64,000 nt of DNA, taken from positions 32,001-96,000 of the forward strand of contig JBGPQV010000001.1 of assembly GCA_041489255.1 (NCBI GenBank), read 5' to 3'. Within the stretch, counting starts at the first letter, position 1; each line of letters starts with the position of its first letter. Source of the stretch: Thermoplasmata archaeon (GTDB lineage: Archaea > Thermoplasmatota > Thermoplasmata > RBG-16-68-12 > JAFNFQ01). The notes beneath the pieces were generated by a model that worked only from the letters and a program-made list of their open reading frames with translations, had not been told where the DNA came from and did not search any database. The translations under genes were made by a program, and so were the position numbers. Of the stretch, positions 11,040 through 32,663 are shown in pieces.

Positions 11040-12110
11040 TCACGACAAAGTCACGTCGCGGAGGACCATCTGAGACTTGACCTTGACGCCGTCCCCTATG
11101 ACGCAGTTGACGAGCCCCGCCCCGTCCATGACTTCGCATCCGCTCCCGATGACGCTGCCCGAGACCTCGGTCCCCTTCCCCGTCACCGAGAAATCCATGA
11201 TGAGTGAGTCCTCTATCGACGCGCCTTGGCCGACCGAGACGCCGTCGTGGAGGCATGACCTCCTCACGACCGCCTCGTCGCCTATCTTGACGTCCCGGCC
11301 GAAGTAGCACGGCCCTTCTATCGTCACACCTTCGCCCGCGCCCACAGGCCCTCGCGCCAGGATCCGCCCCGAGGCATTGAGCCCCGGGATCGAATTCTCC
11401 TTCCCCCTGCGGTTGACCATCTCGATGTTCGCCCTCATGAGATCCGCCGGGCGGCCTATGTCCATCCAAACGCCTTTGATCTGCATTCCGTATAGAGGAA
11501 TCCTGTTGGAGAGGAGCTTGGGGAAGAGATTCTTGGAGAAATCGAACATCTCACCCTCGGGGATGAACTCCACCACCCTTTTCTCGAGCACGTATATGCC
11601 GGCGTTGACGAGCCTGGAGAACGCCTCCTCCCTCTTCGGCTTCTCCTGGAACCTCTGTATCCTCCCTTTCTCGTTGATCGCCGCAATGCCATACTGCGAA
11701 GGATCGTCAACCTCTGTGAGGGCGATGGTCACCGCCGCTTTCCTTTCCTTGTGGAACTCCACCAGCGACCCTATGTCGACGTCCGCCACTATGTCGCCCA
11801 TCGCCACGACGAACGTGCCGTCGATGAACTCCTCGACCCTCTTGACCGCCCCGGCGGTCCCCGCCGGCGTCTCCTCGAAAGAATAGACTATGGATGCATC
11901 GTATTCCAGCCCGTCCCCTATCGACTTTATAAGCTTGTCTGAGAGGTGGTGAGTCGCGATGATTATCTTCTTGATGCCCGCCTCGACGAGCGACCTGAGC
12001 ACATAGTCGATGCACGGTCTGTCAGCGACCGGCATCAATGGCTTCGGCCTGGTGCTGGTCAGGGGCCTGAGGCGCGTACCCTCGCCCCCCGCCAGGACGA
12101 TAGCCTTCAT
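11040..12110 (-). CDS. NDP-sugar pyrophosphorylase (mannose-1-phosphate guanylyltransferase-like) with left-handed beta-helix
   Basis: LAGGEGTRLRPLT..RPKP, FQEKP, NAGIY, WMDIG, hexapeptide repeats. Confidence 0.92.
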   Translation of the reverse strand: MKAIVLAGGEGTRLRPLTSTRPKPLMPVADRPCIDYVLRSLVEAGIKKIIIATHHLSDKLIKSIGDGLEYDASIVYSFEETPAGTAGAVKRVEEFIDGTFVVAMGDIVADVDIGSLVEFHKERKAAVTIALTEVDDPSQYGIAAINEKGRIQRFQEKPKREEAFSRLVNAGIYVLEKRVVEFIPEGEMFDFSKNLFPKLLSNRIPLYGMQIKGVWMDIGRPADLMRANIEMVNRRGKENSIPGLNASGRILARGPVGAGEGVTIEGPCYFGRDVKIGDEAVVRRSCLHDGVSVGQGASIEDSLIMDFSVTGKGTEVSGSVIGSGCEVMDGAGLVNCVIGDGVKVKSQMVLRDVTLS

Positions 12111-12979
12111 CCCTTCAGCTCCACCTTCCCATGCTTGAGCAACCGCTGCAGCTGCTCGTCGGCGACCTCGTCGAGTTTCTTCTTGTCGGTGAGGGCCTTC
12201 CTGACCGATAGGTTCTGCTGGCGGATGATGTCCTTCGCCTCCCGCCTCTCGCGCCTCTCGTCCTCCTTCGTCTTGAGGACGGTCCTGCGCATCTCCTGCG
12301 CCCGCTCATGGTAGGCGTTCGCCTTCTCCCTGAGCTCCAGGAAATCCTTGTGCTTCTTGTCCGCCTCGGCGGTGAGAGTCGCGATCGCGCTGAACGCCTT
12401 GACGACCTTCTCGTGCATCTCCTGCGCCTTATTGGAAAGCTCGACCACCAGCTTGTGCTCCTCGTCCGCGGTCTTGAACAGGTCGTCTATCTGCTCGTTG
12501 ATCTCGCCGACGTTCCTGGACGTCTTGACGTTCTCGTCCTCTATCTTCTCCAGGTCCTTGAGCTCGTGGTATGTCTTGCGGATGTCGTCGATTAGGGCGT
12601 TCTCCTTCGCAATCGTCAGGGGCGTGGTCTGCTGCTTCATCTCCATTTCATCGAAGTTCCTGCGCAGCTGCCTGAGGTCGTCCACAATCATGACGTTCAC
12701 TTTGCCCCTCATCTTCCTCTTGAGCTCGATGAGGTCGCTTGCCTGGTTGTGCAGCGAGTTCCTCTTCTGCTTGTGGACGCGCATCTCCTTGACGAACGAG
12801 TCTCTCTTCCCCTTGAAATCCCTCATCTTGTCGGCGGTTTCCCGCCTCTGATCATGGAGGAGGTCCCTCTCCTGGCGTATCGCGTTGGCCTCCTCGTTGA
12901 GCTGGTCTCTCTTGTCGAGCAGCGAACTGAGCTTGACCTCCGCCTTCTCCAGCTCATTTGGTGTCTTCTTTCTAGGCAT
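12107..12979 (-). CDS. Archaeal long coiled-coil protein (COG1340-like)
   Basis: 290 aa all-helical heptads, RDxLNE repeats, QQTTPLT..KE hinge, ADEEH/AQEMH/ADKKH repeats. Confidence 0.75.
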   Translation of the reverse strand: MPRKKTPNELEKAEVKLSSLLDKRDQLNEEANAIRQERDLLHDQRRETADKMRDFKGKRDSFVKEMRVHKQKRNSLHNQASDLIELKRKMRGKVNVMIVDDLRQLRRNFDEMEMKQQTTPLTIAKENALIDDIRKTYHELKDLEKIEDENVKTSRNVGEINEQIDDLFKTADEEHKLVVELSNKAQEMHEKVVKAFSAIATLTAEADKKHKDFLELREKANAYHERAQEMRRTVLKTKEDERRERREAKDIIRQQNLSVRKALTDKKKLDEVADEQLQRLLKHGKVELKG

Positions 12980-13977: not shown

Positions 13978-14280
13978 GTGCCAATCGATTTGGCGAGCCT
14001 AGCTCTCGACCAGACGAGCGACGCGGGCCCATTCACATGCGTCGTCATCATTTCAGTGGTTGGGCTGATACTCCTCCTTCTCCTCGCAATGTATGCTTAT
14101 CAGAAATATGTCGCCAGCAAGAGACCGATACAGCATCTATGCGACTATTGTGGGCACATGGTCAATGTCGTCTCCGACTGCCATCACGCCCCGGTCAAGG
14201 AGAAATTCCTCCATGGCATCTGCCGGGACTGCAAGAAGGAGTGTCGCCTGGTCTGTGCAAGATGCAAGAGACCGGTCTAA
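13978..14280 (+). CDS. Small single-TM protein with Cys/His zinc-finger tail
   Basis: GTG start about 25 nt after TTTATAT. One TM, then CDYC, CHH, CRDC, C...CARC. Confidence 0.65.
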   Translation: MPIDLASLALDQTSDAGPFTCVVIISVVGLILLLLLAMYAYQKYVASKRPIQHLCDYCGHMVNVVSDCHHAPVKEKFLHGICRDCKKECRLVCARCKRPV

Positions 14281-14339
14281 AGACTCCTCAGTGCGGGAAG
14301 GACAGGCTCAAATACGCCGGCGGGAATCGATTGGCTCCA

Positions 14340-15410
14340 ATGGCGGTGCATGACAGACCGTACGGCTCATTCTACATCGGCAGGCTGCCGAAAGGTTGTG
14401 CACAGTGCGAGAAAGGCGGCAAGATGGTCCTCTTCACCACTGGACTCTGCCCTTTCAGCTGCTACTACTGCCCAATTTCCTTGGAGAAGAAGGGCAAAGA
14501 TGTGGTTTTTGCCGACGAAATGCGCGTGAGGCGGGAGGCGGACATACTCGAAGAGGCCGAGGCAATCAGCGCCACCGGGGCGGGAATAACCGGCGGGGAT
14601 CCTCTTGCCGTTATTGACCGCACATCGAGATACGTGCGCCTGCTGAAGAGAGAGTTCGGCGACAAGTTCCACATCCACCTATACACCATGGGGACGGATC
14701 TGAAGAAGATAGCCAGACTCAGCAAGGCTGGCCTGGATGAGATTCGGTTCCACCCGCCATCGCGGCTCTGGAACCGCATGGGAAGAAGCGGGTATCCAGC
14801 CGCCACCGCCGCCGGCCGCGACAACGGCATGCATGTCGGCTTGGAGGTCCCGCTCATCCCGGACATGCGCCCCGAGGTCGTCGCGCTGATCGGATGGGCG
14901 GAGGTGAACGACCTCGACTTCGTGAACCTTAACGAGATGGAATTCTCCGACACGAATCGAGGACGACTCAGAGCGAAGGGATACAGAGTCGGGCGGGGGA
15001 AATCATATGGAGTCGCAGGCAGCGATTGCGCAGCCAGAGACATCCTCTCGCGCAATTAGGACATCACGGTCCATTATTGCACCTCGGCCTACAAGGACGG
15101 CTGGCAGCTCAGGGAGCGCATCAAGAGGAGAGCGAGGAATGTCAGTCAGCCATGGGACGTCGTGACGAAGGATGGGACGCTCGTCAAGGGCGTCATCGAA
15201 TCAGGCGACCTGAAAAAAGTCATGCGCGATTTGCTGCGGACCTACAGCGTCCCTCGAGGGCTAATCTGGCTCAACCGGGAAAGACACCGCCTCGAAATCG
15301 CCCCCTGGATCTTGGAAGAGCTCGCGAGCAGTCTAGAAATGGAAGCCCACATCATCGAGGAGTATCCGACTGCCGACCATCTCGAGGTGGAGAGGCAAAG
15401 GCTCGCCTAG
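14340..15410 (+). CDS. Archaeal radical SAM protein (COG2108-like) interrupted by an in-frame TAG at 15057-15059 (pseudogene, readthrough or sequencing error)
   Basis: GCAQC, CPFSCYYCP (CxxxCxxC), GITGGDP, HIHLYT. After the TAG the frame continues DITVHYCTSAYKDGWQLRERIKRRA and joins ORF 15162..15410. Confidence 0.85.
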
Positions 15411-16867
15411 CCCTCCCAGACCAGCTTGCCTTCTTTGTCGAGAACGAATGTCCTCTTCGCAAGCATCGACCTCCCCTCGACTATCGTGAACCTCCTGTTC
15501 CCTGCAACCCTCCACTTGCCGAACTTGCCGGAGAATGCGCTCTGGGACTTGACTCGAGCCACATCTGCGTCATCTACAGCCACGATCGTCAGCGACCTGC
15601 ATGTGCTGCACGTTTTCCCCTTTGCCGCAACACATAGGAAACAATACCTCTGACTGCATCTCTCGCATCTCGCGACGAACGAGCCACTCGCCTTCTTGCC
15701 GCAGGAGGGGCAGTCGACCACATGATCCGGGCAGTAGATGCCGAGGCCGAAATCATCTCTGACCGCATGAAGCTCGCATAGCAACTTGCCGCATTGAGCG
15801 CACTTATCTGAAACCCGGAGATCCTCGGCGCATGATTGACAGGACATGCGGTCGCAGACTGCACATTTCCGTTCGCACCTCACGCAAACGACGTGCCCCT
15901 CGTCGCACAGCCCGAGTTCGTTCATCTCCGTCCCGCAGGCGTCACACTTTGGCGGCGGTATCTCCAAACTGACCTCGTCGTACTGCAGCTCGAGCTCCCG
16001 GCCCTTCTTTCGCCCGGTGAGGTGCACCGCCATCTTCACGGTCGGGACAATGATGGTCCTCACTCCGACCAGATTCACTTTGGCGTCTAGGCTGTACTTC
16101 AGCCGCGCCTCCTCGAGCCTCTTCTCTTCCTCCGCGGCGTACGCCTCGATCGCCGCCTTGGCCCGTTCGGGGTACTTCGACTCCTGCGCCTCGCGCGCGA
16201 GGCCGGCGAAGTAGTCCTTGATCCTCTGCTCCTCCTCGGCCAATCTCCCTCTCGCGCTTTCCCGGCAGTCCGCCACGGCCTTGGCGATTCTTTTCTCGAT
16301 GCTCTCGCACGCTGCAATGTACAATGATCGAATGTCTCGTTCTCCCTCCGGAAACTCCTCAGGAAGAGCCAACGCCTCCTCGAAGAACAAATCGCTGACC
16401 TGATGCTCGCGGAGACTTACGGAGTTCAACAGCACGGTCTCCAGAAGTTCAGTTTTCTCGTCGGTGATCATCGTAGCCCTGAACGTGAACAGCGTGTAAG
16501 GAACGAGATCCCTCTTGCTTGTCGAGACCTCGGGGGTCGCATTCCTGAATGACAGGTTTGCGGCAAGCACATCCTTCTCCGACGAGCCCTCTCCGGCCTT
16601 CACTCTCGCGACACAATGATGGCCCCTGCTGCTCGCGTCCTCGATTATCTTGTCGAGCAGGAGGCTCCCCGGGGTCAGCAGCTCGACGCCGTCGTACCTC
16701 TCCGCAAGTGCGGGGTCAAATGTGACTCGCAGGACAGCGGCGTTGAGCGCCGCTCGGCGCTCGGTGGGTATCTCATACCTCACTACCCCGGGTACGTCCT
16801 CGAACCTCCCCGCCCCAAGCTTCTCGAAGTAAGTGCCTATGAAGGATCTCAGTTCAGGCTGCCTCAG
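15407..16867 (-). CDS. SNF2 partner: RapA_C/YqhG-like N-terminal region, coiled coil and multi-zinc-finger C-terminus
   Basis: TFDPALAE..ELLTPGSLLLDKII motif, coiled coil, 21 Cys in CxxC/CxxH units. Probable CTG start overlaps the SNF2 stop (CTGA) after GGTGGAGGGG. Confidence 0.8.
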   Translation of the reverse strand: MRQPELRSFIGTYFEKLGAGRFEDVPGVVRYEIPTERRAALNAAVLRVTFDPALAERYDGVELLTPGSLLLDKIIEDASSRGHHCVARVKAGEGSSEKDVLAANLSFRNATPEVSTSKRDLVPYTLFTFRATMITDEKTELLETVLLNSVSLREHQVSDLFFEEALALPEEFPEGERDIRSLYIAACESIEKRIAKAVADCRESARGRLAEEEQRIKDYFAGLAREAQESKYPERAKAAIEAYAAEEEKRLEEARLKYSLDAKVNLVGVRTIIVPTVKMAVHLTGRKKGRELELQYDEVSLEIPPPKCDACGTEMNELGLCDEGHVVCVRCERKCAVCDRMSCQSCAEDLRVSDKCAQCGKLLCELHAVRDDFGLGIYCPDHVVDCPSCGKKASGSFVARCERCSQRYCFLCVAAKGKTCSTCRSLTIVAVDDADVARVKSQSAFSGKFGKWRVAGNRRFTIVEGRSMLAKRTFVLDKEGKLVWEG

Positions 16868-18618
16868 GTCGACCCCTCCACCGCCAGAGATGAACCCAGG
16901 AGGTTCTCCTGATAGGACTTGACCGCGGCGTACCGCCTCTTCGCATCGAGCAGTTCCCCGCCAAACCTCTCCAGCTCCCTCCTTCTCTCGGCCTCGCTCT
17001 CCATGGACCAGATTTCCATCAGCACCTCCTCGAAGCTCCTCCTGTCCTCGACGCTGCCGAGGATGAGATCGAGCTCGCCAACGACCAGCTCGAACATGTC
17101 GATCTTCTTGTCGAGAAGCTCGAGGATGTACTCGTCGATCGTCTTGTCGGTCCAGAAGCTGACTATCTGACACTCCTTCTCCTGGCCGACGCGGTGTATC
17201 CTGCCTATCCTCTGCTCGAGCCTCAGCGGGTTCCATGGCAGGTCGTAGTTGACCAGCTTGTTCGCGAACTGCAGGTTGCGCCCCTCGCCGCCAGCCTCGG
17301 TGCTGAGGAACACCTTCGCCGCTCCCTTGAACTTCCTGACGCTCTCCTCCTTCGTCCACGCGTCCATGCCGCCGTGGAAGATCGAATGCGTGAAGCCCTC
17401 CTGAGTGAGCAGCCCATCCAGGTAGCTGAGCGTCGGCAGGTACTGCGTGAAGACGAGCACCTTGTCGTCGAACTTGCCGAGGAACTCGACGAGCTTCAGG
17501 CCTTTCTCGTGGCGGTCCACAGAAACCGCCATATCGCGCAGTCTCGACAACTGCTCCCTCTCCTCGAAGGCGAACTGCTCGCTCTCGCTCAACCTCCTCA
17601 GCGTCGCCGCCGCGGCGAAACTGCTGCTGCCCACCTCCTTCTGGAGAATCATCAGCGCGAGGCGATTGATCGATGTCTCCTTCCTGTCCAAGCGAGGATA
17701 TCTGGAGCGAATGAATGAGGTCACCTCGTCGTAAAGTCTGCGCTCGCCGGGCGAGAATGTTATGCGGGCGAGGTGCGCCCTCCTTGGCGGGAGCGTCAGG
17801 ACGTTCCCCCGCCTGTTCCTGATCATCACCTCGAACAGCAGGCCCCTGAGGTCGCCCACGTCCTTGGGCATGCGCTTGTCCCCCGCCGCCAGGAACCTCT
17901 TCTTGAACTGCCCCCACGTCCCCATCTGCCCCGGCTTGAGCAGGGTGACCAGGTTGAACAGCTCCTCCAGGTCGTTCTGCACCGGCGTGGCGGTCAGGAG
18001 GAGGAGGTACTTCTTGCGGATGCCGTTGACGAACTTCCAGTTGAGCGTGAGGCGGTTCTTCAGCTTGTGCGCCTCGTCGATGATGACGAGGTCGAACGTG
18101 ATGCCCTCGATGTTCGCGGAATGGCGGGGCCTCTTCGCAGTGTCGAGCGAGCATATCAAACGATCGTGCCTCGCCCAGTCCTCCACCTCGTCGGTCACCT
18201 CGAAGGGGATCCCGAACTTCTCCTGCATCTCGTCCCGCCACTGCTCAGTCAATGAAGCTGGCACGAGGACGAGCACCTTCCTCACGAGACCCCTGATCAT
18301 CAGCTCCTTCGCGATCAGCCCGGCCTCAATCGTCTTCCCGAGGCCGACCTCGTCCGCGAGTATTGCCCTGCCCCTCAGCTCCCTGAGCACCTTGAGCGCC
18401 GTCTTGATCTGGAAGTCGTACTTGCGCAGGCCCCTGACGAGAGGCAGACACAGGAGCTCCTCGAATCCGGATTTCAGGCTGAGAGTCTGAGCGTCCAGAT
18501 TGAGCAACCATGACTTCGAGTCCTCCACAATCCCGTCCTGCACCTCGTTGAGAATCGCGAAGTCTTCTGGAGAGAAACGGAGTTCCGGTACATGTCTGGG
18601 CACATACGCCTCAGTCAT
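16864..18618 (-). CDS. SNF2-family SF2 ATPase (YqhH/RapA-like)
   Basis: LADEVGLGKT, IIDEAH, LTATPVQN, STEAGGEGRNLQ, NYDLPWNP..LEQRIGRIHRVGQ. Start uncertain; frame is open further upstream. Confidence 0.93.
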   Translation of the reverse strand: MTEAYVPRHVPELRFSPEDFAILNEVQDGIVEDSKSWLLNLDAQTLSLKSGFEELLCLPLVRGLRKYDFQIKTALKVLRELRGRAILADEVGLGKTIEAGLIAKELMIRGLVRKVLVLVPASLTEQWRDEMQEKFGIPFEVTDEVEDWARHDRLICSLDTAKRPRHSANIEGITFDLVIIDEAHKLKNRLTLNWKFVNGIRKKYLLLLTATPVQNDLEELFNLVTLLKPGQMGTWGQFKKRFLAAGDKRMPKDVGDLRGLLFEVMIRNRRGNVLTLPPRRAHLARITFSPGERRLYDEVTSFIRSRYPRLDRKETSINRLALMILQKEVGSSSFAAAATLRRLSESEQFAFEEREQLSRLRDMAVSVDRHEKGLKLVEFLGKFDDKVLVFTQYLPTLSYLDGLLTQEGFTHSIFHGGMDAWTKEESVRKFKGAAKVFLSTEAGGEGRNLQFANKLVNYDLPWNPLRLEQRIGRIHRVGQEKECQIVSFWTDKTIDEYILELLDKKIDMFELVVGELDLILGSVEDRRSFEEVLMEIWSMESEAERRRELERFGGELLDAKRRYAAVKSYQENLLGSSLAVEGST

Positions 18619-18796
18619 CCTTTGCGGGACTGATGCTTCGGAGACCTGATCAGAGGATTCCACATTTGCTGGAGATGAACGTGCCCCATCCAGTGTGCCA
18701 CGTCTCAGATTCTGCACTCTCCTCGAAGTGGGTGGCTTTAGGCCAGATGCTGAGATAATGGTTTTGGCGGGGTGCGCGTCCGCAGCGCAGCGGCCA

Positions 18797-19222
18797 TCAC
18801 GCAACGCTGACGCTCTCAATCGCGTGATGCCTTGCGATCAGGTCCCTGGCCATCCGGAGGTTCTTGCCCTCCTTCCCTATCGCGCGGCCCTTCTTGGTCG
18901 ACTCGACCGTCACGGTCGCGTGCGTGACCCCGTCCCTGTCCTCAATCTCCACCTTCTTGACGTCGTACGCGTGGAAGACGTTCGCCACGAACTCCTCTGG
19001 TTTCTCCGAGAACTCGATGACCTGGATGTCCCTTTTTAAAAGAAGCCTAACGCGCGCGACAGTCTCCCCTTTCCTGCCTATTGCCTTGCTCGCCTCACCC
19101 TTGCCGACGACAAAGATGATCTTGTCCCCGGTGTCGACGCAGTCCATCACCGTGCACAAGGTGACATTCTGGAAGATCGTGACGTACCCTAACGTGTCCT
19201 CGTTGAAGGTCACCTGGCCCAT
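18797..19222 (-). CDS. nusA: Archaeal NusA (two KH domains)
   Basis: KAIGRKG and RAIGKEGKN KH motifs; position after rpl30e. Confidence 0.93.
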   Translation of the reverse strand: MGQVTFNEDTLGYVTIFQNVTLCTVMDCVDTGDKIIFVVGKGEASKAIGRKGETVARVRLLLKRDIQVIEFSEKPEEFVANVFHAYDVKKVEIEDRDGVTHATVTVESTKKGRAIGKEGKNLRMARDLIARHHAIESVSVA

Positions 19223-19230
19223 GCTGACAC

Positions 19231-19503
19231 CTACAGGGACATTATCGTCGACTCGCCGGGGCTCAGCACGGCGAGCACGGCGACCGAATACGGCTTGCCG
19301 CACGCCGCCCCCAGGTCGAGGCTGGTCCCCTTGTATCTGTGTATCTTCACCGCGACATCTTTCAGCCAGGCGAATTCCGGGCAGTTGGAGGCGATTACCA
19401 ACATCTTCGCCGTCTTCTTCCTGACGGCTTTCTCGGACCTCCTCGTGCCTATGACCACGTCGCCGGTATCGACCGCCTGTTTGATGACCATGCTCTCGTC
19501 CAT
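19231..19503 (-). CDS. rpl30e: 50S ribosomal protein L30e
   Basis: AVDTGDVVIG, IASNCP, LGAACGKPYSV, PGESTI. Confidence 0.93.
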   Translation of the reverse strand: MDESMVIKQAVDTGDVVIGTRRSEKAVRKKTAKMLVIASNCPEFAWLKDVAVKIHRYKGTSLDLGAACGKPYSVAVLAVLSPGESTIMSL

Positions 19504-19505
19504 GC

Positions 19506-23799
<4,294 letters not shown>

Positions 23800-23803
<4 letters not shown>

Positions 23804-26800
23804 TTCAAGTCCTCCAGTTGAAGGCGCATCGCAATTCCGAGCGAGAGCAGCTCGTCGAGCAGAAGTTTGAACGCGTAGCTCGTCTGCACAGGGTAGATGC
23901 GGGAGTTGTTGTCGCAGACGGGGCACCTGAGGTTCCCCTTCCTGTCCTTGATGGCGAAGTGACCGCACTCCGCCTCCCCGCAGACGTACTGTATCGTGCC
24001 GTCCGACTCGTCGAGCAAGCGGTCCTTGATGACCATCGCGGCGCCGTGGCCTATGAGACAGTCCCGCTCCATTTCGCCGAACCTCAAGCCGCCCTGGCGG
24101 GAGCGGCCTTCCGTCGGCTGCCGGGTGAGTATCTGCACGGGCCCTCGCGACCTCACGTGCAGCTTGCCGCTGACCATGTGGTGCAGCTTCTGGTAGTAGA
24201 TGACACCGATGAAAATCTCGGCGGGGATGATCCTGCCCGTCATGCCGTCGTACATGACCTCCTTGCAGTTGCTCTTGAAGCCGTAGTCCTCGAGTTCCTT
24301 GCGCAGGGCCTCCTCTCTCTCGCCGCTGAAAGGCGTGCCGTCGACGAACCTCCCCTCCATGGCACCGACCTTCCCGCCAATCATCTCGAGGACGTGCGCG
24401 ATTGTCATCCTCGAAGGGATGGCATGCGGGTTGATGATGAGGTCCGGCACGATCCCATGCTCTGTGAACGGCATGTCCTCCTGCTGGGCAATCAGCCCAA
24501 TCACACCCTTTTGCCCATGACGGGAGGCGAACTTGTCGCCGAGCTCCGGCACCCTGAGGTCCCTGACCTTGACCTTGGCGAGCTTGCTACCGTTCTCGGA
24601 CTCGGTGAGCATGACACTGTCGACCCAGCCGCTCTCCCCGTGCCTGACTGTTACGGACGTCTCGCGCCTCTTCTGCGGCGTGAGGAAGTCAGTCTCCTCC
24701 TCAAGGAAACGCGGCGGCGACGTCTTCCCTATGAGAACCTCTCCACCGTTGACCTGAACCTCTGGCGATATCAGACCGTCGTCCGGAGTGAGGCTCGCGT
24801 AGCTGAGGTCTGCGCGCGCTCCGCGAACATCGGGGGACGGGATCTCGAAGTGGTCCTCCTGCCCGCCGGGGTACCTGCGCTCCTCGGATCTGTACGTCCT
24901 CATGAAGGACGAGCGACCGAGACCCCTGTCAATTGACGCCTTGTTCATCACGATGGCGTATTCCATGTTGTACCCGTGGTAGGACATGACCGCCACGACG
25001 AAATTCTCGCCTGCCGGTCTCTCGTTGAAACTGACGAACTTCATCGCCTCGGTCTGGACCATAGGGACCTGCGGGTTGTGCAGCAGATGGCTTCTCGTGT
25101 CCGGCCTTATCCGGTAGTTGCTGGAGCCGAATCCGAGCGACTGCTTCGCCATGCCCGCGCCCATCGTGACCCTGGGTGACGAGTTGTGCTCCGGGTAAGG
25201 AACGAGGCCAGAGGCGACGCCGAGTATGACCAGCGGATCGATCTCGGCATGGGTGTTGTCCAGGGTGAGAGATGGCTTGACTCGGAACGACTTGCCGCAC
25301 AGGCGGCACTCCAGTTCCACGTCGCCGTCCTCGCCCATGTTCGCCCACCTTACGTCGTTGCGCGATATCGGGCGGCGGCACTCCTTGCACTTCAGCGGGA
25401 CCTCGTATGGATATATCGACACGAACGAGTCCTCTTCCTCCTCCGCGTCGATCCATTCAACCAGGCCGTTCCTGACCAGGTCGCTCCACTTCAGGCGTCC
25501 GGACTCCAGGTCCGTCAACTGCTTCGCCGTTATCAGCGGCTTGCCGTCCCTGACGACCATGAGGGGCCGCCTTATCCTCCCCTCGTCGCAGTTGATCGTG
25601 ACGTCGTTCATCATCTCGTCGTAGTGGATGTTCACCTCGTGGCTCAGCAGCCCGCTGCGCCTCCTTTCCCTGATTTCGGACACCAGCGTCGCGGGATCAT
25701 CGTGCAGTCCGACCAGGTCTCCGTTCACGTAGACCCTGGTCAGGTTCGTCTGCTGGCTCTTGACCTGCTTCGTGCCCAGGTCCGCCAGAAGCAGCTTGAC
25801 CTCGTCCTCCGAGAAACCTTCCGAGACATCGATCACGAGGGCGCAGTTCTTCACCAGCCCGCAGTTCTGCCCTTCGGGGGTCTCGTTGGGGCACAGCCGC
25901 CCCCATTGCGTCGGATGCAAGTCCCTGGCCTCGAAGTGTGGCTGGCTGCGCGTGAGCGGGGATGTGATCCGCCTCAGGTGACTGAGCGCGCTGATGTTGT
26001 TCGTCCTGTCTAAGAGCTGCGAGACTCCTGCCCTCCCGCCAACCCAATTGCCCGTGGCCAGGGCGTGAAGCAGCCTCTGGCTCAGCAGGTCCGGCCTGAT
26101 CGCCGACGCGATCTTGATGTCCTTGCGGCGGGCATAGCTCCTCTCGAGCTGGTACTTGAGGTCCTTCACCAGGTTGGCGAACGCCACTCTGAACAGGTCC
26201 TCCATCAGGTCCCCCGCCAGCTTCAGTCTCTTGTTGGCGTAGTGGTCCTTGTCGTCCTCGCGCCTCTTGCCCAGGTAGAACTCCAGGACGGACCTGGCGG
26301 TTCTGCCTAGGAAGATCGCCTTCTTGATCCTGTCCTCCCTCGTGTCCCCGAGGTGGGGCAGCAAGCTCCTGTCGAGGATCGACTCGACCTTCTTTATCCT
26401 GTACTCCTTCGCTTGACCCGTGGCAAACTTCTTCTCGAGGAAGCCGAGAGCGTCCTCCCTGGTGAAGATGCCGTTCGGCGGGTACTGTTTCTTGCTCTGG
26501 CACTCCTCTATGTTCGCGTAGAGGATGCTCGCCATCTCGGGAGTCGAGACGATAGCGTTGTAGATATCCTCGTCCTTTTCCATGCTCAGGGCCTTCATCA
26601 GGATAATCAGCGGAATCTGGCCGGACGCGGTCGGGACAGTCACTATGAGCATCCCGTCCTTCTTCATCTCGACGAGGGTGAGCGCACGGTAGCCCTCGCG
26701 CTGTGAGAACACCTTGGCCACTGGTATCTTGCGGCCGTACCTCTCGTTGTACTCAACGAGCACCCTGTTAGGTGCGAGGTCCTCCAGTGAAATTAGAACC

Positions 26801-27390
26801 CTCTCTGTGCCGCCAATGATGAAGTACCCGCCAGGGTCTGCGTGGTCTTCTCCCATCTTGACGAGCCTGTCGCGGAACTCCTGATCGGTGATTTCTCCAT
26901 CTACCTCCAGGTTCTCCCTGTAGAGCGAGCACTTCTTGCTCTTTGTCATGATCGGCAGGTTGCCTATGTGCACCCTCTCCGGCTCCCTCTCGATCCCGTT
27001 CTCGATGACGGTGAAGTCGAGGTAGACAGGCGCCTGGTAGCTGAGGTTCCTCAGGCGCGCCTCCATCGGCGTGAGCGGATGCGTCGCCCCGTTCGCCTCC
27101 TTGACGATCGGCAGCGACACCGAGATGGTCGGCTTCGCCTCCATGTCGATCTTGCCCTTGTCGTCCCTCTTCCGCCCTATCCTGATCTCAATCGTGTCCC
27201 CCTCGGTGCGGTCCTCGTCCAGCTTGAACACGCCGCGCCTGTCGTCCTCCGGGGACGACCTCATGTTGTCCACTATGCGCTGCATCCTGCTGTTAGGGTT
27301 GTCGAGCGTCGGCAGGAAATCGTTGATGCTAGCTATGTGGTGGTTGACGATGCTCCTCTCGCGGAAAAACGCCTCGATAAGTTCTCTCAT
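23800..27390 (-). CDS. rpoB: RNA polymerase subunit B (unsplit) with an inserted zinc ribbon
   Basis: [33 protein letters not shown]; 1196 aa single chain. Confidence 0.98.
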
Positions 27391-28560: not shown

Positions 28561-28703
28561 ATGCTTCGGCTCCCGAGACTCGGAAAGGATTTCCGCATCT
28601 GATTCCCAGCATGACAGCGCTACAATGTGTATCTTGCTCCAAGATACGTCTTCTGAGAGGACGGAAATAGAGCCCACCCCCGTGATATGACGGGGATGTG
28701 TTA

Positions 28704-31700
28704 ATGAAACTAGATCGGCATGGAAGAGCGTCGTTCGCCGTTTTGGCGCTCGCAATCCTGCTCCTTGCGAACCTGAGCGTCGTCTACATGCTCCAGGTGC
28801 AGCGGGAAGAAATGGACCTCGCGAATCAGGCGAATGAAGTGCGCATGATGAGAGAGTTCGGTGCATTGGTCCACAGAGAGGTGGAGGTCGCCGCCCACTA
28901 CATCGCGATGGCCACGATAAGGAACGCCACGCAAGACCTCAACAACCAAAGCAGGATCAATGAGCTGTTCTCCGATTCATTCGCTAGCTTCGTCGAGGAA
29001 TCGTTCCCGCGCGAGGCAAGGGGATTCACGGTCGCCGTAGACGACTACGGGATCATCGTCGTGACCGAGGCAAAGAGCGTGACGGACGTCGTGAGGACGG
29101 GGACTCTGGCAGAAAACAGCGAGGGGGAAGATTCTCCCGAAGCGATAGAGACGGGTGTGCCCGGCGGTCTGGAGGAAGCCCAGCGGATTTCCTACTATCA
29201 TCTGATTGGGCACCTGAACTACACAATCTCGGACGGCACAACGACTCTCCGCACGAGCGAGGATGTTGCCTCGGAGATCGACTCGCCTTTCCCATTCGTC
29301 AACAGACAACTCCAGCGATTCTCCATTACATCGCAGGGCCCGATGTCGCACTCGGCGCAGGCACTCAGGTACATGCTCACGACCGTTGCGCAGCAGAGGG
29401 TCCTGCTCGGCTACGCTGGCGGCGACTACGGCAGCCCTGGTACCGGGATCACCAACATACTCACCCCGCAGGACGTCGAGATGGCGGTGAATCTCGTGCT
29501 TGTCTTGGAGCAGATCAGGCTCTTCAGATCGGTTGACAGGGATGCTGTCGACAAGTTTGACGAGGCCTACTTCATGGACTACGCTGGCGGCGTCTCATCT
29601 CCGACACTGACCCCGTCCGCAGACAACAGGACACTCCTGAGGCTTCTCGACACTTACTCGGGAAATGGGACGTTGGACCCGGCTGACCTATTTGCGCTGT
29701 TCACCGCGTTGGACCGGGAAGATATCCAGATGAACCGCGTACTCGCTCAAGCCCTCTATGCCATGATTGACCAGTTTTCCCTCAAGTACCTAGACTACCT
29801 AGACTTCCTGCCTTTAGAGTTCATCGCCAACCTTGGCCTGAGCGTCCTCGAGCTCTTGACCGGTGCGCTCGACCAATTCATCGGCTGGCTGACGAATCAT
29901 CAAAAAGAGGCGGACATGGTCCGCGAGTTCGTGAGTAATCTGTTTGGCGACCTTGGCGTCTCGACGTCCATTCTGGGTCCCGCGAGTCTGTCGCTCCCCG
30001 CTCAGACTTTCACCGTGACTGACGAAGGCGGGCAAGAATACAACATCTCGCTGCCAGCCCAGCTCTACTCTGTCCCGTTCAAGACAAGATACCTTCTCGA
30101 AGGGAACAACGCCATTTGGAGCGAATACTTCAATGAGATCTACAAGGACGACCTCAAGGCAGTCCACGCCGGTGTCAGGGACCTCGCAAGGGACATCGCC
30201 AACAGCCTCGCCAGCAAGCTCGACATGATCGGCCTGTTCAATCCAGTTCGGATCAACGGGGCCATTGATCCCCGAGATGATGTAGGGATGCTTGAGTACC
30301 TTTACGGCGCAATCAAGGCTTCCGTCTATGAGGCCATGGAGGGGCTCCGAGGGAATCCGAAGTTCTACCAAGGGCTTGTCGCGAACTTGTGGGGACATGA
30401 GAAGGAGATGATTAGAGGACTCATGGACTATATTGAACTGGAATACGATGCTCTCGCGGACCAAGCATCGAACGTCGAATTCGCCCGCGGGTCGCTCGTC
30501 AACTCGATGATCGGCGTGGCTACATTCGACGGAGTCTATCGCCTCCTCGATGACACTGCGAGGGCACAGCTGGCACAGCACATTACCCAGGCTATTGATG
30601 AGAACGGTTGGGCGCAGGCCGCATATGAGAAAGCGAAGAGCAATGATGTGCAGAGGTTCGAGTCGCTCTACGACAAGGCGATAAACCTCGACACGCCGCC
30701 GGCGAATGGCGGGTTGTACCAGCGGACGATGGAGATGATATCAGGTGCCACCGGCATCCTCACAGAGGCCGGCGATTTCGTGAATGTGTTCCTGGAGGGG
30801 TTGACGAGAAACGAACACATCTCGAACGATAAGATATTGATACCTGCGTACACGCAACCTTTCGAGTTCCGCAATCCGGGACTGTTCGCGAACCGCTCCC
30901 AAGCGGGTTTGAAGGAGGAAGCCCTCGTCGCCGACCAGAGCCCCGACCTGCTGCCCATAACACGACTCACGAGAGTTGGCGGTGAATTGCAGGGGGAACC
31001 GAATCAAGGCGAGCTTTGGGTGGACATAGTCGACCCCATGGATGTCCCGTTGTCAAAAGATTCGCCGAATGTGCATTACACCCAGGTCGACCGAATCTCC
31101 GACCGACCGTTCCAGACCCAGTGGACGATCACGATCAAGGGGTCAGTCGGGATGACCGTATCGACCGAGCGCGCGGTCTATCTCGACCCCGAAGGCCTTG
31201 TCCCGGTCGTCGATCAGCTGGCAGTCCCTCTGAACCTGACATTGATTGTGACGACCTTCAGTGGCTGGCCTCTCGACGGCGTGGCCTATGCCAGTTCGAA
31301 CACGCTCGGCAGTGACCTCTGGGCCAAGATTCAGAGCTTCTTTGAGGGGGTTTGGGACGCTGTCAGTTCCTCTGTTGGGTGGCTACTCGACGGCGCAAAA
31401 TCCCTGCTGGATCAGCTTTCTTCGATAATCGACTACCTGCTCGCCCAAGCCTCGAAAGTCCTCAAAATGGTTTACGACGTCATCGACAAGGTTTTCGACT
31501 TACTACAGAAGGCGCTGCAAGGCGTCATTTCTCATCTTATGGAGGCGCTGGACTACGTCCTGAAATCGCTGCCCAGTTTCGAGTTCAAACTCTCTGGGTT
31601 CGGCCTCACTCTTCGCATCGCCGTTAACTGCGATGAAGCGAACAGGCTGCTGGTCGAAGCTACCCTCGGTTCGTTCAACATCACCGCAAGGTTCGTCAAT

Positions 31701-32663
31701 CTCGAAAAAGCGGGGATAACCCCGCGCCAGAAGTGGGCATCGTGGGACATCCTCGCTGACGTCGAGGGTGCGGTAGGCCCGTTCACCCTGAAAGCCAGAA
31801 TCGACCCGCTGATGATCGTCAGCGACCGCCTTGTGAGGGCGAGAGCCCGGTGGGGAGAGACATTCGAACTGGACCTCGTCATGCCGGAGGTGGAAACCTA
31901 TCACGCGTATGGCTTCAGTGTGGCGATACCGATCCCGGTGCCGCCGATCGGGGAAGTGGAAATCGAGCTGGGTTTCCGCGTCAGGGCATCTGAACAATTC
32001 GAAGCGATTGACATCCCTGGCATTATGGCACACAGCATCCAAGAAGGGATAGAGCAGTGCGGTGGTATTCCGACATCCCTCGATCTGCTGGGGGAATGCA
32101 TCGAACAAGTCGTGAGGCATTTCGTGGATGACCTGTTGGCGGCTGTCGAAGATAGATTGACTAAGATAATCGATGTGACTCTCTATGTTCAGGGGGCCTT
32201 GATGTTTGAGGGAGTGGCGGGGGTGGGGGCTAGATTATCGCTCACCGTCGAGGGGGAAGGATTGTTGGAGCTTTTCGCGTTCATCGCGGACAACATCAGA
32301 GGGCTCCTCGATTGCATCTTCGATGGTGTGTGCCTGATACACATGGAGAACGCCCCCAAGAAAATCGGGGAGCATATCTTCATCACCTTGGGGATTTTCA
32401 TGAATGTCCAGGCGCCGACATTCATCCCGCTTGCCTTACCCGTCGGCGGGAGCGCGGAAGTCGCTGTCACATTCGGCATAGGGGCCAACTTGGCTCTGCT
32501 AGGGAGAATAGTCGGACGCGACTTGGGCGCATGGGAGATTGATTTCGGCATGGTGATTGAGGATCTCCCTGCTTCAATGGCGCCCGAGCTCTTCGGGGCC
32601 GGCGTCGAACGGGGCGACCTGTGGATATTCAAGGGGACGGTGACGGCTCCGCGGCCCCCTTGA
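28704..32663 (+). CDS. Very large hypothetical membrane-anchored or secreted protein (about 1320 aa)
   Basis: Long ORF with N-terminal MKLDRHGRASFAVLALAILLLA hydrophobic segment, an amphipathic helical stretch near 31320-31570 and a beta-rich C-terminus. Confidence 0.85.
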   Translation: MKLDRHGRASFAVLALAILLLANLSVVYMLQVQREEMDLANQANEVRMMREFGALVHREVEVAAHYIAMATIRNATQDLNNQSRINELFSDSFASFVEESFPREARGFTVAVDDYGIIVVTEAKSVTDVVRTGTLAENSEGEDSPEAIETGVPGGLEEAQRISYYHLIGHLNYTISDGTTTLRTSEDVASEIDSPFPFVNRQLQRFSITSQGPMSHSAQALRYMLTTVAQQRVLLGYAGGDYGSPGTGITNILTPQDVEMAVNLVLVLEQIRLFRSVDRDAVDKFDEAYFMDYAGGVSSPTLTPSADNRTLLRLLDTYSGNGTLDPADLFALFTALDREDIQMNRVLAQALYAMIDQFSLKYLDYLDFLPLEFIANLGLSVLELLTGALDQFIGWLTNHQKEADMVREFVSNLFGDLGVSTSILGPASLSLPAQTFTVTDEGGQEYNISLPAQLYSVPFKTRYLLEGNNAIWSEYFNEIYKDDLKAVHAGVRDLARDIANSLASKLDMIGLFNPVRINGAIDPRDDVGMLEYLYGAIKASVYEAMEGLRGNPKFYQGLVANLWGHEKEMIRGLMDYIELEYDALADQASNVEFARGSLVNSMIGVATFDGVYRLLDDTARAQLAQHITQAIDENGWAQAAYEKAKSNDVQRFESLYDKAINLDTPPANGGLYQRTMEMISGATGILTEAGDFVNVFLEGLTRNEHISNDKILIPAYTQPFEFRNPGLFANRSQAGLKEEALVADQSPDLLPITRLTRVGGELQGEPNQGELWVDIVDPMDVPLSKDSPNVHYTQVDRISDRPFQTQWTITIKGSVGMTVSTERAVYLDPEGLVPVVDQLAVPLNLTLIVTTFSGWPLDGVAYASSNTLGSDLWAKIQSFFEGVWDAVSSSVGWLLDGAKSLLDQLSSIIDYLLAQASKVLKMVYDVIDKVFDLLQKALQGVISHLMEALDYVLKSLPSFEFKLSGFGLTLRIAVNCDEANRLLVEATLGSFNITARFVNLEKAGITPRQKWASWDILADVEGAVGPFTLKARIDPLMIVSDRLVRARARWGETFELDLVMPEVETYHAYGFSVAIPIPVPPIGEVEIELGFRVRASEQFEAIDIPGIMAHSIQEGIEQCGGIPTSLDLLGECIEQVVRHFVDDLLAAVEDRLTKIIDVTLYVQGALMFEGVAGVGARLSLTVEGEGLLELFAFIADNIRGLLDCIFDGVCLIHMENAPKKIGEHIFITLGIFMNVQAPTFIPLALPVGGSAEVAVTFGIGANLALLGRIVGRDLGAWEIDFGMVIEDLPASMAPELFGAGVERGDLWIFKGTVTAPRPP

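Follow-up and report, generated by a model that had tools for sequence, protein, structure and literature searches.

A candidate two-subunit RapA-type SNF2 enzyme with an added zinc array, encoded next to RNA polymerase genes in a Thermoplasmata archaeon

Two overlapping genes that follow nusA in a Thermoplasmata archaeon raise the question of whether they encode the two halves of a single enzyme related to bacterial RapA and, if so, whether that enzyme acts on RNA polymerase (RNAP). The genes lie in a 64,000-nucleotide stretch of DNA (contig JBGPQV010000001.1 of assembly GCA_041489255.1, positions 32,001 to 96,000), which is referred to here as the window. The first gene (18618..16864, minus strand) encodes an SNF2/Swi2 ATPase of 584 amino acids, called the motor in this study, and the second (16867..15407, minus strand) encodes a protein of 486 amino acids, called the partner. 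An original prediction had described the pair as a RapA-like machine divided into a motor and an adaptor that might act on archaeal RNAP or chromatin. We consider it probable that the two genes are the two halves of one RapA-type Swi2/Snf2 two-subunit enzyme, on the basis of the homology of both halves, their tiling along RapA, the conserved overlap of the genes, their strict co-occurrence and the existence of fused forms.

RapA is the only solved relative of the partner domain, yet short SNF2 motors accompanied by an uncharacterised partner of the YqhG type occur in thousands of prokaryotes. YqhG is Pfam family PF11079, which has no assigned function. The tiling of the window pair along RapA with a break at residue 711, together with the fused, split and permuted forms described below, makes it a testable proposal that the YqhG family is the detached regulatory and targeting half of a RapA-type enzyme.

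Alignment of motor and partner with RapA

The coordinates and translations agree with the original description of an SNF2 ATPase and a 486-residue partner that overlap by CTGA and follow nusA on the same strand. The motor reads from an ATG at 18618 to a TGA at 16866..16864 and is matched by the Pfam models SNF2-rel_dom (E-value 5e-34) and Helicase_C (4e-21). Its ATPase motifs are intact, and among 22 orthologues there is little or no variation in the columns of Walker A, DEAH and motif VI. Among PDB sequences the best match is RapA (8e-41), followed by SSO1653 (1.4e-34). When a profile of the motor (alignment A3) was compared with the K-12 record of Escherichia coli RapA by hhalign, motor residues 25-571 aligned to RapA residues 114-711 with a probability of 100 and an E-value of 5e-48. 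The motor carries 24 residues before this aligned part and approximately 60 before motif I. Taken together, the Pfam, PDB and hhalign results place the counterpart of the motor at RapA residues 114-711, with the N-terminal domain of RapA lacking a counterpart.

The partner begins with a YqhG-like domain (residues 1-300; 15968..16867, minus strand), which appears equivalent to the Spacer and C-terminal domain of RapA. An AlphaFold model of these residues, built with a deep alignment of 82 sequences covering the first 300 residues of the partner (alignment A2), has a predicted local distance difference test (pLDDT) score of 92 and a predicted template modelling (pTM) score of 0.76. In this model an alpha/beta subdomain and a beta sheet are accompanied by a long helical hairpin and by closing strands. 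The strings quoted in the original prediction were all found: VTFDP...DKII spans residues 48-75, the long helical hairpin covers 179-257 and VNLVGVRTIIV occupies 264-274.

A Foldseek search of the PDB with the N-domain model returned RapA as all five of the top matches, four with E-values of 1.9e-7 to 3.1e-7 and one (4s20) with 9.8e-3, and the next match after RapA was a kinesin (E-value 0.023, probability 0.08), leaving RapA as the sole significant match. With a model of the whole partner (pLDDT 67), the top four Foldseek matches were again RapA, with E-values of 8e-5 to 2e-4. Structural alignment by VIA-align yielded Z scores of 10.5, 9.6, 9.0 and 8.6 with 234-237 residues aligned, placing model residues 1-277 on RapA residues 710-968, and the next chain after RapA scored Z 7.8 over 60 aligned residues. 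Sequence profiles point the same way. An hmmsearch with A2 against PDB sequences matched RapA with an E-value of 0.0027 in two collinear stretches, and hhalign of A2 against E. coli RapA aligned partner residues 2-254 to RapA 711-950 (probability 80.6, E-value 1.3e-5), the first subdomain of the partner corresponding to RapA 711-789.

Because the motor ends and the partner starts at approximately residue 711 of RapA, the two genes tile RapA residues 114-950 end to end. The structural and profile matches thus support the earlier suggestion that the first ~280 residues of the partner resemble the C-terminal part of RapA. The proposed division into motor and adaptor is likewise upheld by the abutting alignments and by the occurrence of fused forms in the same phylum.

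Several results weigh against reading this likeness too strongly. The hhalign E-values are those of single comparisons, and with a shallow alignment of the partner (A1) the likeness to RapA is insignificant (probability 0.6, E-value 0.09). A fold search independent of Foldseek placed RapA at rank 6 (Z 7.8, 224 residues aligned), where it was the sole match to span the domain, but was tied on Z score with helical hairpins of ~55 residues (Z up to 8.4). The root-mean-square deviation of the superposition with RapA is high, at about 10-11 Å; this would fit subdomains joined by a hinge, though caution is still advised. No counterpart of the N-terminal domain of RapA (residues 1-107) was found, since the motor alignment begins at RapA 114, and the whole-partner profile A1 gave one match to full-length RapA (residues 713-922) and none to residues 1-113. 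The motor scores 200.3 bits, in two stretches, against the NCBIfam RapA model (NF003426 / PRK04914), which is below its equivalog cut-off of 576 bits. Finally, six-frame searches of the genome that contains the window recovered no match at E<=1 to YqhG (PF11079) or to RapA_C (PF12137), the latter model matching its E. coli control.

The gene junction, the partner family and its fused forms

The motor and partner genes are in different frames and overlap by the four nucleotides CTGA (16867..16864, minus strand), which combine the TGA stop codon of the motor with the first codon of the partner, CTG (16865-16867). The partner ends with a TAG at 15409..15407. Judged from its sequence, the CTGA overlap is a putative translational-coupling site. 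The first codon of the partner is neither ATG, GTG nor TTG, and the next canonical in-frame start codon is a GTG located ~28 codons downstream. Among the junctions of the window and 20 related loci, start and stop overlap in all 21, and the overlap has the form NTGA in 20 of them (ATGA in 6, GTGA in 11, TTGA in 1 and CTGA in 2). The remaining junction, that of locus L029, has a GTG start and an overlap of 8 nucleotides. CTGA occurs only in the window and in the congener G001 (the L014 junction). An ATG, GTG or TTG stands within an NTGA overlap in 18 of the 20 related loci, and with L029 the related loci that use one of these three codons number 19.

The first 10 codons of the partner differ between the window and G001 by synonymous changes only. 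The aligned position is occupied by M in 9 of 15 database relatives (485-487 amino acids; P0004, P0009-P0017), whose first residues are conserved, and residues 3-17 of the partner form a confident helix in the predicted model. The M starts of the relatives, the NTGA overlaps at other loci and the exclusively synonymous changes between the window and G001 therefore argue that the CTG position is the real N-terminus. The codons after the CTG are under purifying selection in the window and G001. This pattern of conservation suggests either initiation at the CTG or termination and reinitiation at the CTGA overlap.

We considered the possibility that the pair is one gene broken by a frameshift or an assembly error. 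The junction is bridged without an insertion or deletion by contigs of three other metagenome runs (X3 record 2, X6 record 18 and X8 record 27), and so the split is real rather than an assembly artefact. The retention of the overlap in all 21 junctions likewise led us to reject this possibility.

The partner is strictly associated with the motor. A survey of 61 genomes from the order detected the partner in 28 and the motor in 30. Both are restricted to the families designated f1, f4 and f6, and a search of 29 genomes from families f2, f3, f5 and f7 detected neither. The motor immediately precedes the partner in all 20 loci from the order. Of 301 sampled genomes of the phylum, 40 contain a match to the partner which, by a reading of the table, involves the N-terminal domain in 25 and the zinc part only in 15. 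A motor gene is located directly upstream of the partner-like match in each of the 12 N-domain loci that were retrieved from other families of the phylum.

In nine of these 12 loci outside the order, the motor and the partner domain are encoded in one uninterrupted frame (953-1181 codons). Four of the fusions, all from family f41, join the full domain to a motor that is about 40% identical to that of the window. In the other five, a more distant motor (28-30% identical) is followed by no more than the initial ~85 residues of the domain. P0100 is fused the other way round, with the partner domain first, then a zinc ribbon and then a motor 45% identical to that of the window.

Loci L036, L037, L041 and L044 encode SNF2 motors of 1126-1181 codons in which the motor is directly followed by just the initial ~85 residues of that domain and the protein ends in a NOV_C domain (PF13020). 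This nuclease-like end was present in 4 of the 10 open reading frames (ORFs) scanned from phylum loci, these four being all of the distant-motor fusions scanned. Going by their domain content, the NOV_C forms may represent a different, possibly defence-type, use of the first subdomain of the partner.

Downstream of the YqhG-like domain, the partner contains a cysteine-rich region (residues ~301-425; 15593..15967, minus strand) that has no equivalent in RapA. Alignment of 16 sequences reveals 22 invariant cysteines, from C308 to C423, and two invariant histidines (H325 and H367). From this count, the region would hold about six zinc sites. Its likeness to chains with RING, PHD and zinc-ribbon folds is weak. 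The remaining residues (~426-486, with the stop codon; 15407..15592, minus strand) form a small conserved C-terminal module with the invariant residues K451, W452, N457, E464, G465, F474, D477, E485 and G486 and with beta strands predicted at low confidence. Some remote relatives end in the same module. In the whole-partner model, pLDDT is about 80-92 over residues 280-400 and 33-45 over the C-terminal module. The pair thus has the appearance of a split RapA-type enzyme with an added, predicted zinc array.

The partner itself has no match among Pfam (E<=0.1), NCBIfam and PADLOC models, YqhG and RapA_C included. A phmmer search against PDB sequences returned PHD-finger matches only, with an E-value of 0.3, and an ESM Atlas search with residues 296-486 gave no usable match. 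A word-indexed search identified only 15 close relatives (52-92% identity). In a library of 1.84 billion proteins, the profile A1 made from close relatives had 1148 matches at E<=1e-3, of which 571 were at E<=1e-10. Our survey of this family rests on 149 listed matches of the 1148, of which 72 were scanned against Pfam. The first ~300 residues are the common core of the listed matches. The tail behind this core ranges between a single zinc ribbon and cysteine arrays of very large size, and the proteins contain between 1 and 88 cysteines each.

Eight of the 72 scanned relatives match YqhG (PF11079) at E<=1e-3, and five of these reach the 25-bit cut-off. For example, P0022 is matched by A1 at 2.6e-46 and has a PF11079 score of its own of 36.2 bits. 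The original proposal that the pair mirrors yqhH-yqhG of Bacillus is thereby sustained through the remote relatives of the partner that pass the Pfam cut-off. An SNF2 domain is present in the same chain in two of the 72. All eight relatives that were looked up in public collections are unnamed or called 'hypothetical protein'. Because one relative derives from a metagenome-assembled genome of Planctomycetota, the partner family spans Bacteria and Archaea.

Gene neighbourhood and possible targets of the enzyme

If the two proteins form one RapA-type enzyme, the 584-residue protein would be an ATP-driven translocase on double-stranded DNA, and the 486-residue protein would be produced by translational coupling at the CTGA overlap. 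The first ~280 residues of the partner would supply the counterpart of the RapA Spacer and C-terminal domain, to which the zinc sites and the C-terminal module are added. The partner may then dock on the motor in the manner of the corresponding regions within the one chain of RapA, and when docked could regulate the ATPase of the motor. The Spacer-like subdomain and the zinc array would hold the target, and the motor, by pulling DNA, would dislodge or reposition a DNA-bound protein.

By analogy with RapA, the most likely target would be a stalled or post-termination RNAP, an assignment that we regard as tentative. A more specific proposal, which we find somewhat doubtful, is that the pair is the functional archaeal counterpart of RapA, a two-subunit factor that binds archaeal RNAP and either releases stalled or post-termination complexes or returns them to activity. 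RNAP would in that case be bound by the Spacer-like subdomain and the zinc array of the partner. To our knowledge, no dedicated search having been run, no SNF2-type RNAP factor is known in Archaea. Were this proposal true, the pair would be the first SNF2-type RNAP remodeller known in this domain of life, the YqhG family would gain its function in both Bacteria and Archaea, and the placement of the pair after nusA in the order would be a remnant of the link to RNAP.

Published data on RapA bear on this proposal. According to a study of the RapA-RNAP complex (PMC8501970), the N-terminal domain of RapA regulates (autoinhibits) its ATPase and touches RNAP. The zinc-binding domain of RNAP beta' contacts the RapA Spacer (D744) and N-terminal domain, and deletion of this beta' domain nearly abolishes activation of the RapA ATPase (PMC8501970). 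The RapA group is said in the same source to include archaeal members. For Bacillus subtilis, one report names YqhH as HepA/RapA and groups it with RNAP-associated translocases (PMC7385302). The RNAP pull-down from that species, as presented in two other reports, concerns the long homologue YwqA and not YqhH (PMC3797733, PMC10804225), which counts against an RNAP target.

The original prediction reasoned from the position of the pair after nusA to an action on RNAP. In the window, Pfam matches define rpoB (27390..23800), rpoA' (23968..21017), rpoA'' (21020..19506), the gene for L30e (about 19550..19231) and the gene for the KH-domain NusA (19303..18797), all on the minus strand. The stop codon of nusA is separated from the start of the motor on this strand by a spacer of 178 base pairs (18619..18796). 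The rpoA'' and nusA genes are located upstream of the motor in all 18 of the order loci (of 20) that reach far enough, with a gap between nusA and the motor of 0.14 to 6.2 kb in relatives. The sister genome G001 carries a gene for a surface protein of 1358 amino acids on the opposite strand between nusA and the motor. In genus g8 a major facilitator superfamily (MFS) transporter gene is located there, joined in one case by a tetratricopeptide repeat (TPR) ATPase gene. We therefore rejected the idea that the pair is, as a general feature, part of an rpo-nusA transcription unit.

In five genomes of families f2, f3 and f7 that lack the pair, nusA is followed by at most a short radical-SAM-like remnant and then by ksgA, the DUF7121 gene and the nucleotidyltransferase gene. 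These last three genes follow the pair in the window as they follow nusA in the families without it. Two further observations speak against an RNAP target. The proximity to rpo genes is limited to three families of one order and is interrupted by unrelated genes, and neither rpo nor nusA is near the pair in any of the 12 loci outside the order within the stretch fetched. Given the variable gap, the direct joins in genomes without the pair and these 12 outside loci, the context lends little support to a role with RNAP, and the step from position to function in the original prediction is not supported. The adjacency has the look of inherited synteny at a site that varies. The pair is a candidate archaeal SNF2-type RNAP factor for which gene context is not evidence.

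We also weighed a reading in which the pair acts in recombination or repair as a Rad54-like translocase akin to SSO1653 (SsoRad54), with a motor that remodels DNA or recombinase filaments and a partner that targets DNA structures rather than RNAP. We judge this unlikely, although it fits several observations. The motor matches SSO1653 over its whole length nearly as well as it matches RapA, with residues 60-518 aligned in one stretch to residues 34-479 of the catalytic domain chain 1z63_A (E-value 1.4e-34). A study of SsoRad54 describes the full-length protein as a double-stranded-DNA-dependent ATPase that stimulates strand exchange by RadA, gives its motor as residues 430-906 after a long N-terminal part, and reports 39% identity to a Bacillus 'HepA' (PMC2677860). 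The fusion protein P0100 likewise has a partner-like domain ahead of a motor similar to that of the window.

The Pfam YqhG model also matches the genome of Sulfolobus acidocaldarius, used as a control, at a score below its cut-off. Deletion of yqhH sensitised PcrA-depleted B. subtilis to methyl methanesulfonate (MMS) (PMC7385302). Against a Rad54-like role, no recombination or repair genes were found near the pair, either in the window or in the 12 outside loci, and the sole solved relative of the accessory domain is RapA.

A different possibility is that the two proteins form no complex, the partner being an independent zinc-finger nucleic-acid-binding protein that shares an operon with a helicase. 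The partner does evolve faster than the motor (26-39% versus 51-61% identity within the order), and its zinc part is freely gained and lost. However, the fusions in either order, the co-occurrence, the overlapping stop and start codons and the tiling along RapA are classic marks of subunits of one enzyme, which makes a partner that acts independently improbable.

Membership of an anti-virus system centred on an SNF2 helicase, such as DISARM DrmD, Dpd DpdE, BREX BrxH or Zorya ZorD, would account for the fact that the best NCBIfam and PADLOC scores of the motor are to DrmD, BrxHI, HmaA and DpdE, and the NOV_C ends of the distant phylum motors noted above would also be in keeping with it. Yet all of these helicase matches are far below curated cut-offs and cover the generic ATPase core only, with 273 of 610 bits for DrmD, 232 of 950 for DrmD_b, 206 of 500 for DpdE and 73 of 1500 for ZorD in NCBIfam, and the partner has no PADLOC match at all. 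Methylase, nuclease and other defence genes are absent within about 10 kb of the pair and around the seven outside loci that were inspected, whose neighbours are ordinary housekeeping genes. This agrees with the original remark that no methylase or nuclease neighbours suggest a defence island. Companion genes (methylase, DrmA/B/C, DpdA-K and ZorA-C) were likewise not found in the neighbourhood. All 20 loci, which belong to three families, have the pair at one chromosomal position, as expected of vertical inheritance, and the pair has diverged to a degree comparable with that of the housekeeping genes beside it. The gene context thus argues against a defence role, and, with the sub-cut-off scores and the unmatched partner, we rejected a defence island as highly improbable.

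The remaining neighbours of the pair include a radical SAM gene (14037..15059, plus strand; Pfam Radical_SAM) that is convergent with the partner, followed by a conserved ORF of 82 amino acids (15162..15410, plus strand) whose end overlaps the stop codon of the partner. The 82-residue ORF is present in all 20 pair-bearing loci (52-89% identity), in none of five loci without the pair and in none of the 12 outside the order, and it matches no Pfam or NCBIfam family. Because the pair, the radical SAM gene and this ORF co-vary in the order, they constitute a four-gene block that is present or absent as a whole.

Several relatives encode the first ~85 residues of the radical SAM protein as a separate piece, at a distance from the main part of between a few tens of bases and some 2 kb, the loci concerned being L021, L025, L029, L031, L032, L033 and L046-L048. 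Families without the pair keep only this N-terminal piece, between nusA and ksgA. The piece might be what a deletion has left behind, or else a small gene in its own right.

In two relatives, genomes G011 and G020, about 1.5 kb separates the two parts of the rpoA'' match, the break falling between query residues 183 and 179 (L017, 3814-6840; L019, 13766-16810), which could reflect an intein or other insertion. Other neighbours assigned by Pfam in the window are ksgA, DUF7121, a sugar nucleotidyltransferase and transporters. The DUF7121 coiled-coil protein (12107-12979, minus strand) is encoded between ksgA and the nucleotidyltransferase gene and belongs to a backbone that is found order-wide with or without the pair. 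Upstream of the rpo cluster, an ORF of 1321 amino acids (28698-32663, plus strand) has no Pfam match at E<=0.01.

Comparison with known systems

In the literature covered, which did not extend to subscription journals, no paper links YqhG to the C-terminus of RapA, gives a function for YqhG or describes a split RapA in Archaea. Among known systems, E. coli RapA (HepA; PDB entries 6BOG, 4S20, 8T0L and 8SO8) has the same domain order as the window pair. The ATPase core of the motor is homologous to domains 1A, 1B, 2A and 2B of RapA, and the ~280 N-terminal residues of the partner match the Spacer and C-terminal domain (710-968) in fold, and weakly in sequence. In contrast with RapA, the window encodes two polypeptides, has no N-terminal double beta-sheet domain, derives from an archaeal host, and possesses an extra zinc array and C-terminal module.

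The yqhH (hepA)-yqhG pair of B. subtilis likewise sets a short SNF2 motor (about 560-590 amino acids) beside an uncharacterised partner gene, and the adjacency of yqhH and yqhG in that species is documented in a published report (PMC6123443). Compared with YqhG, the partner from the window carries about 190 extra residues, comprising the zinc array and the C-terminal module, is archaeal, and has no match to PF11079.

SsoRad54 is archaeal, as is the window pair, and its similarity to the motor extends over the full length; P0100 shares the layout reported for SsoRad54, wherein the accessory part is placed in front. However, SsoRad54 is one chain with its accessory part ahead of the motor, whereas the window motor has no long accessory region N-terminal to it in the same chain and its accessory domain is encoded by a separate downstream gene. 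With DISARM DrmD, DpdE, BrxH and ZorD the motor shares a generic SNF2 core, but the scores are below cut-offs and the companion genes are absent. Features particular to the window are the location of the pair beside rpo and nusA genes, a large zinc array, a CTG start common to two congeners and the abutment of the two proteins at RapA residue 711.

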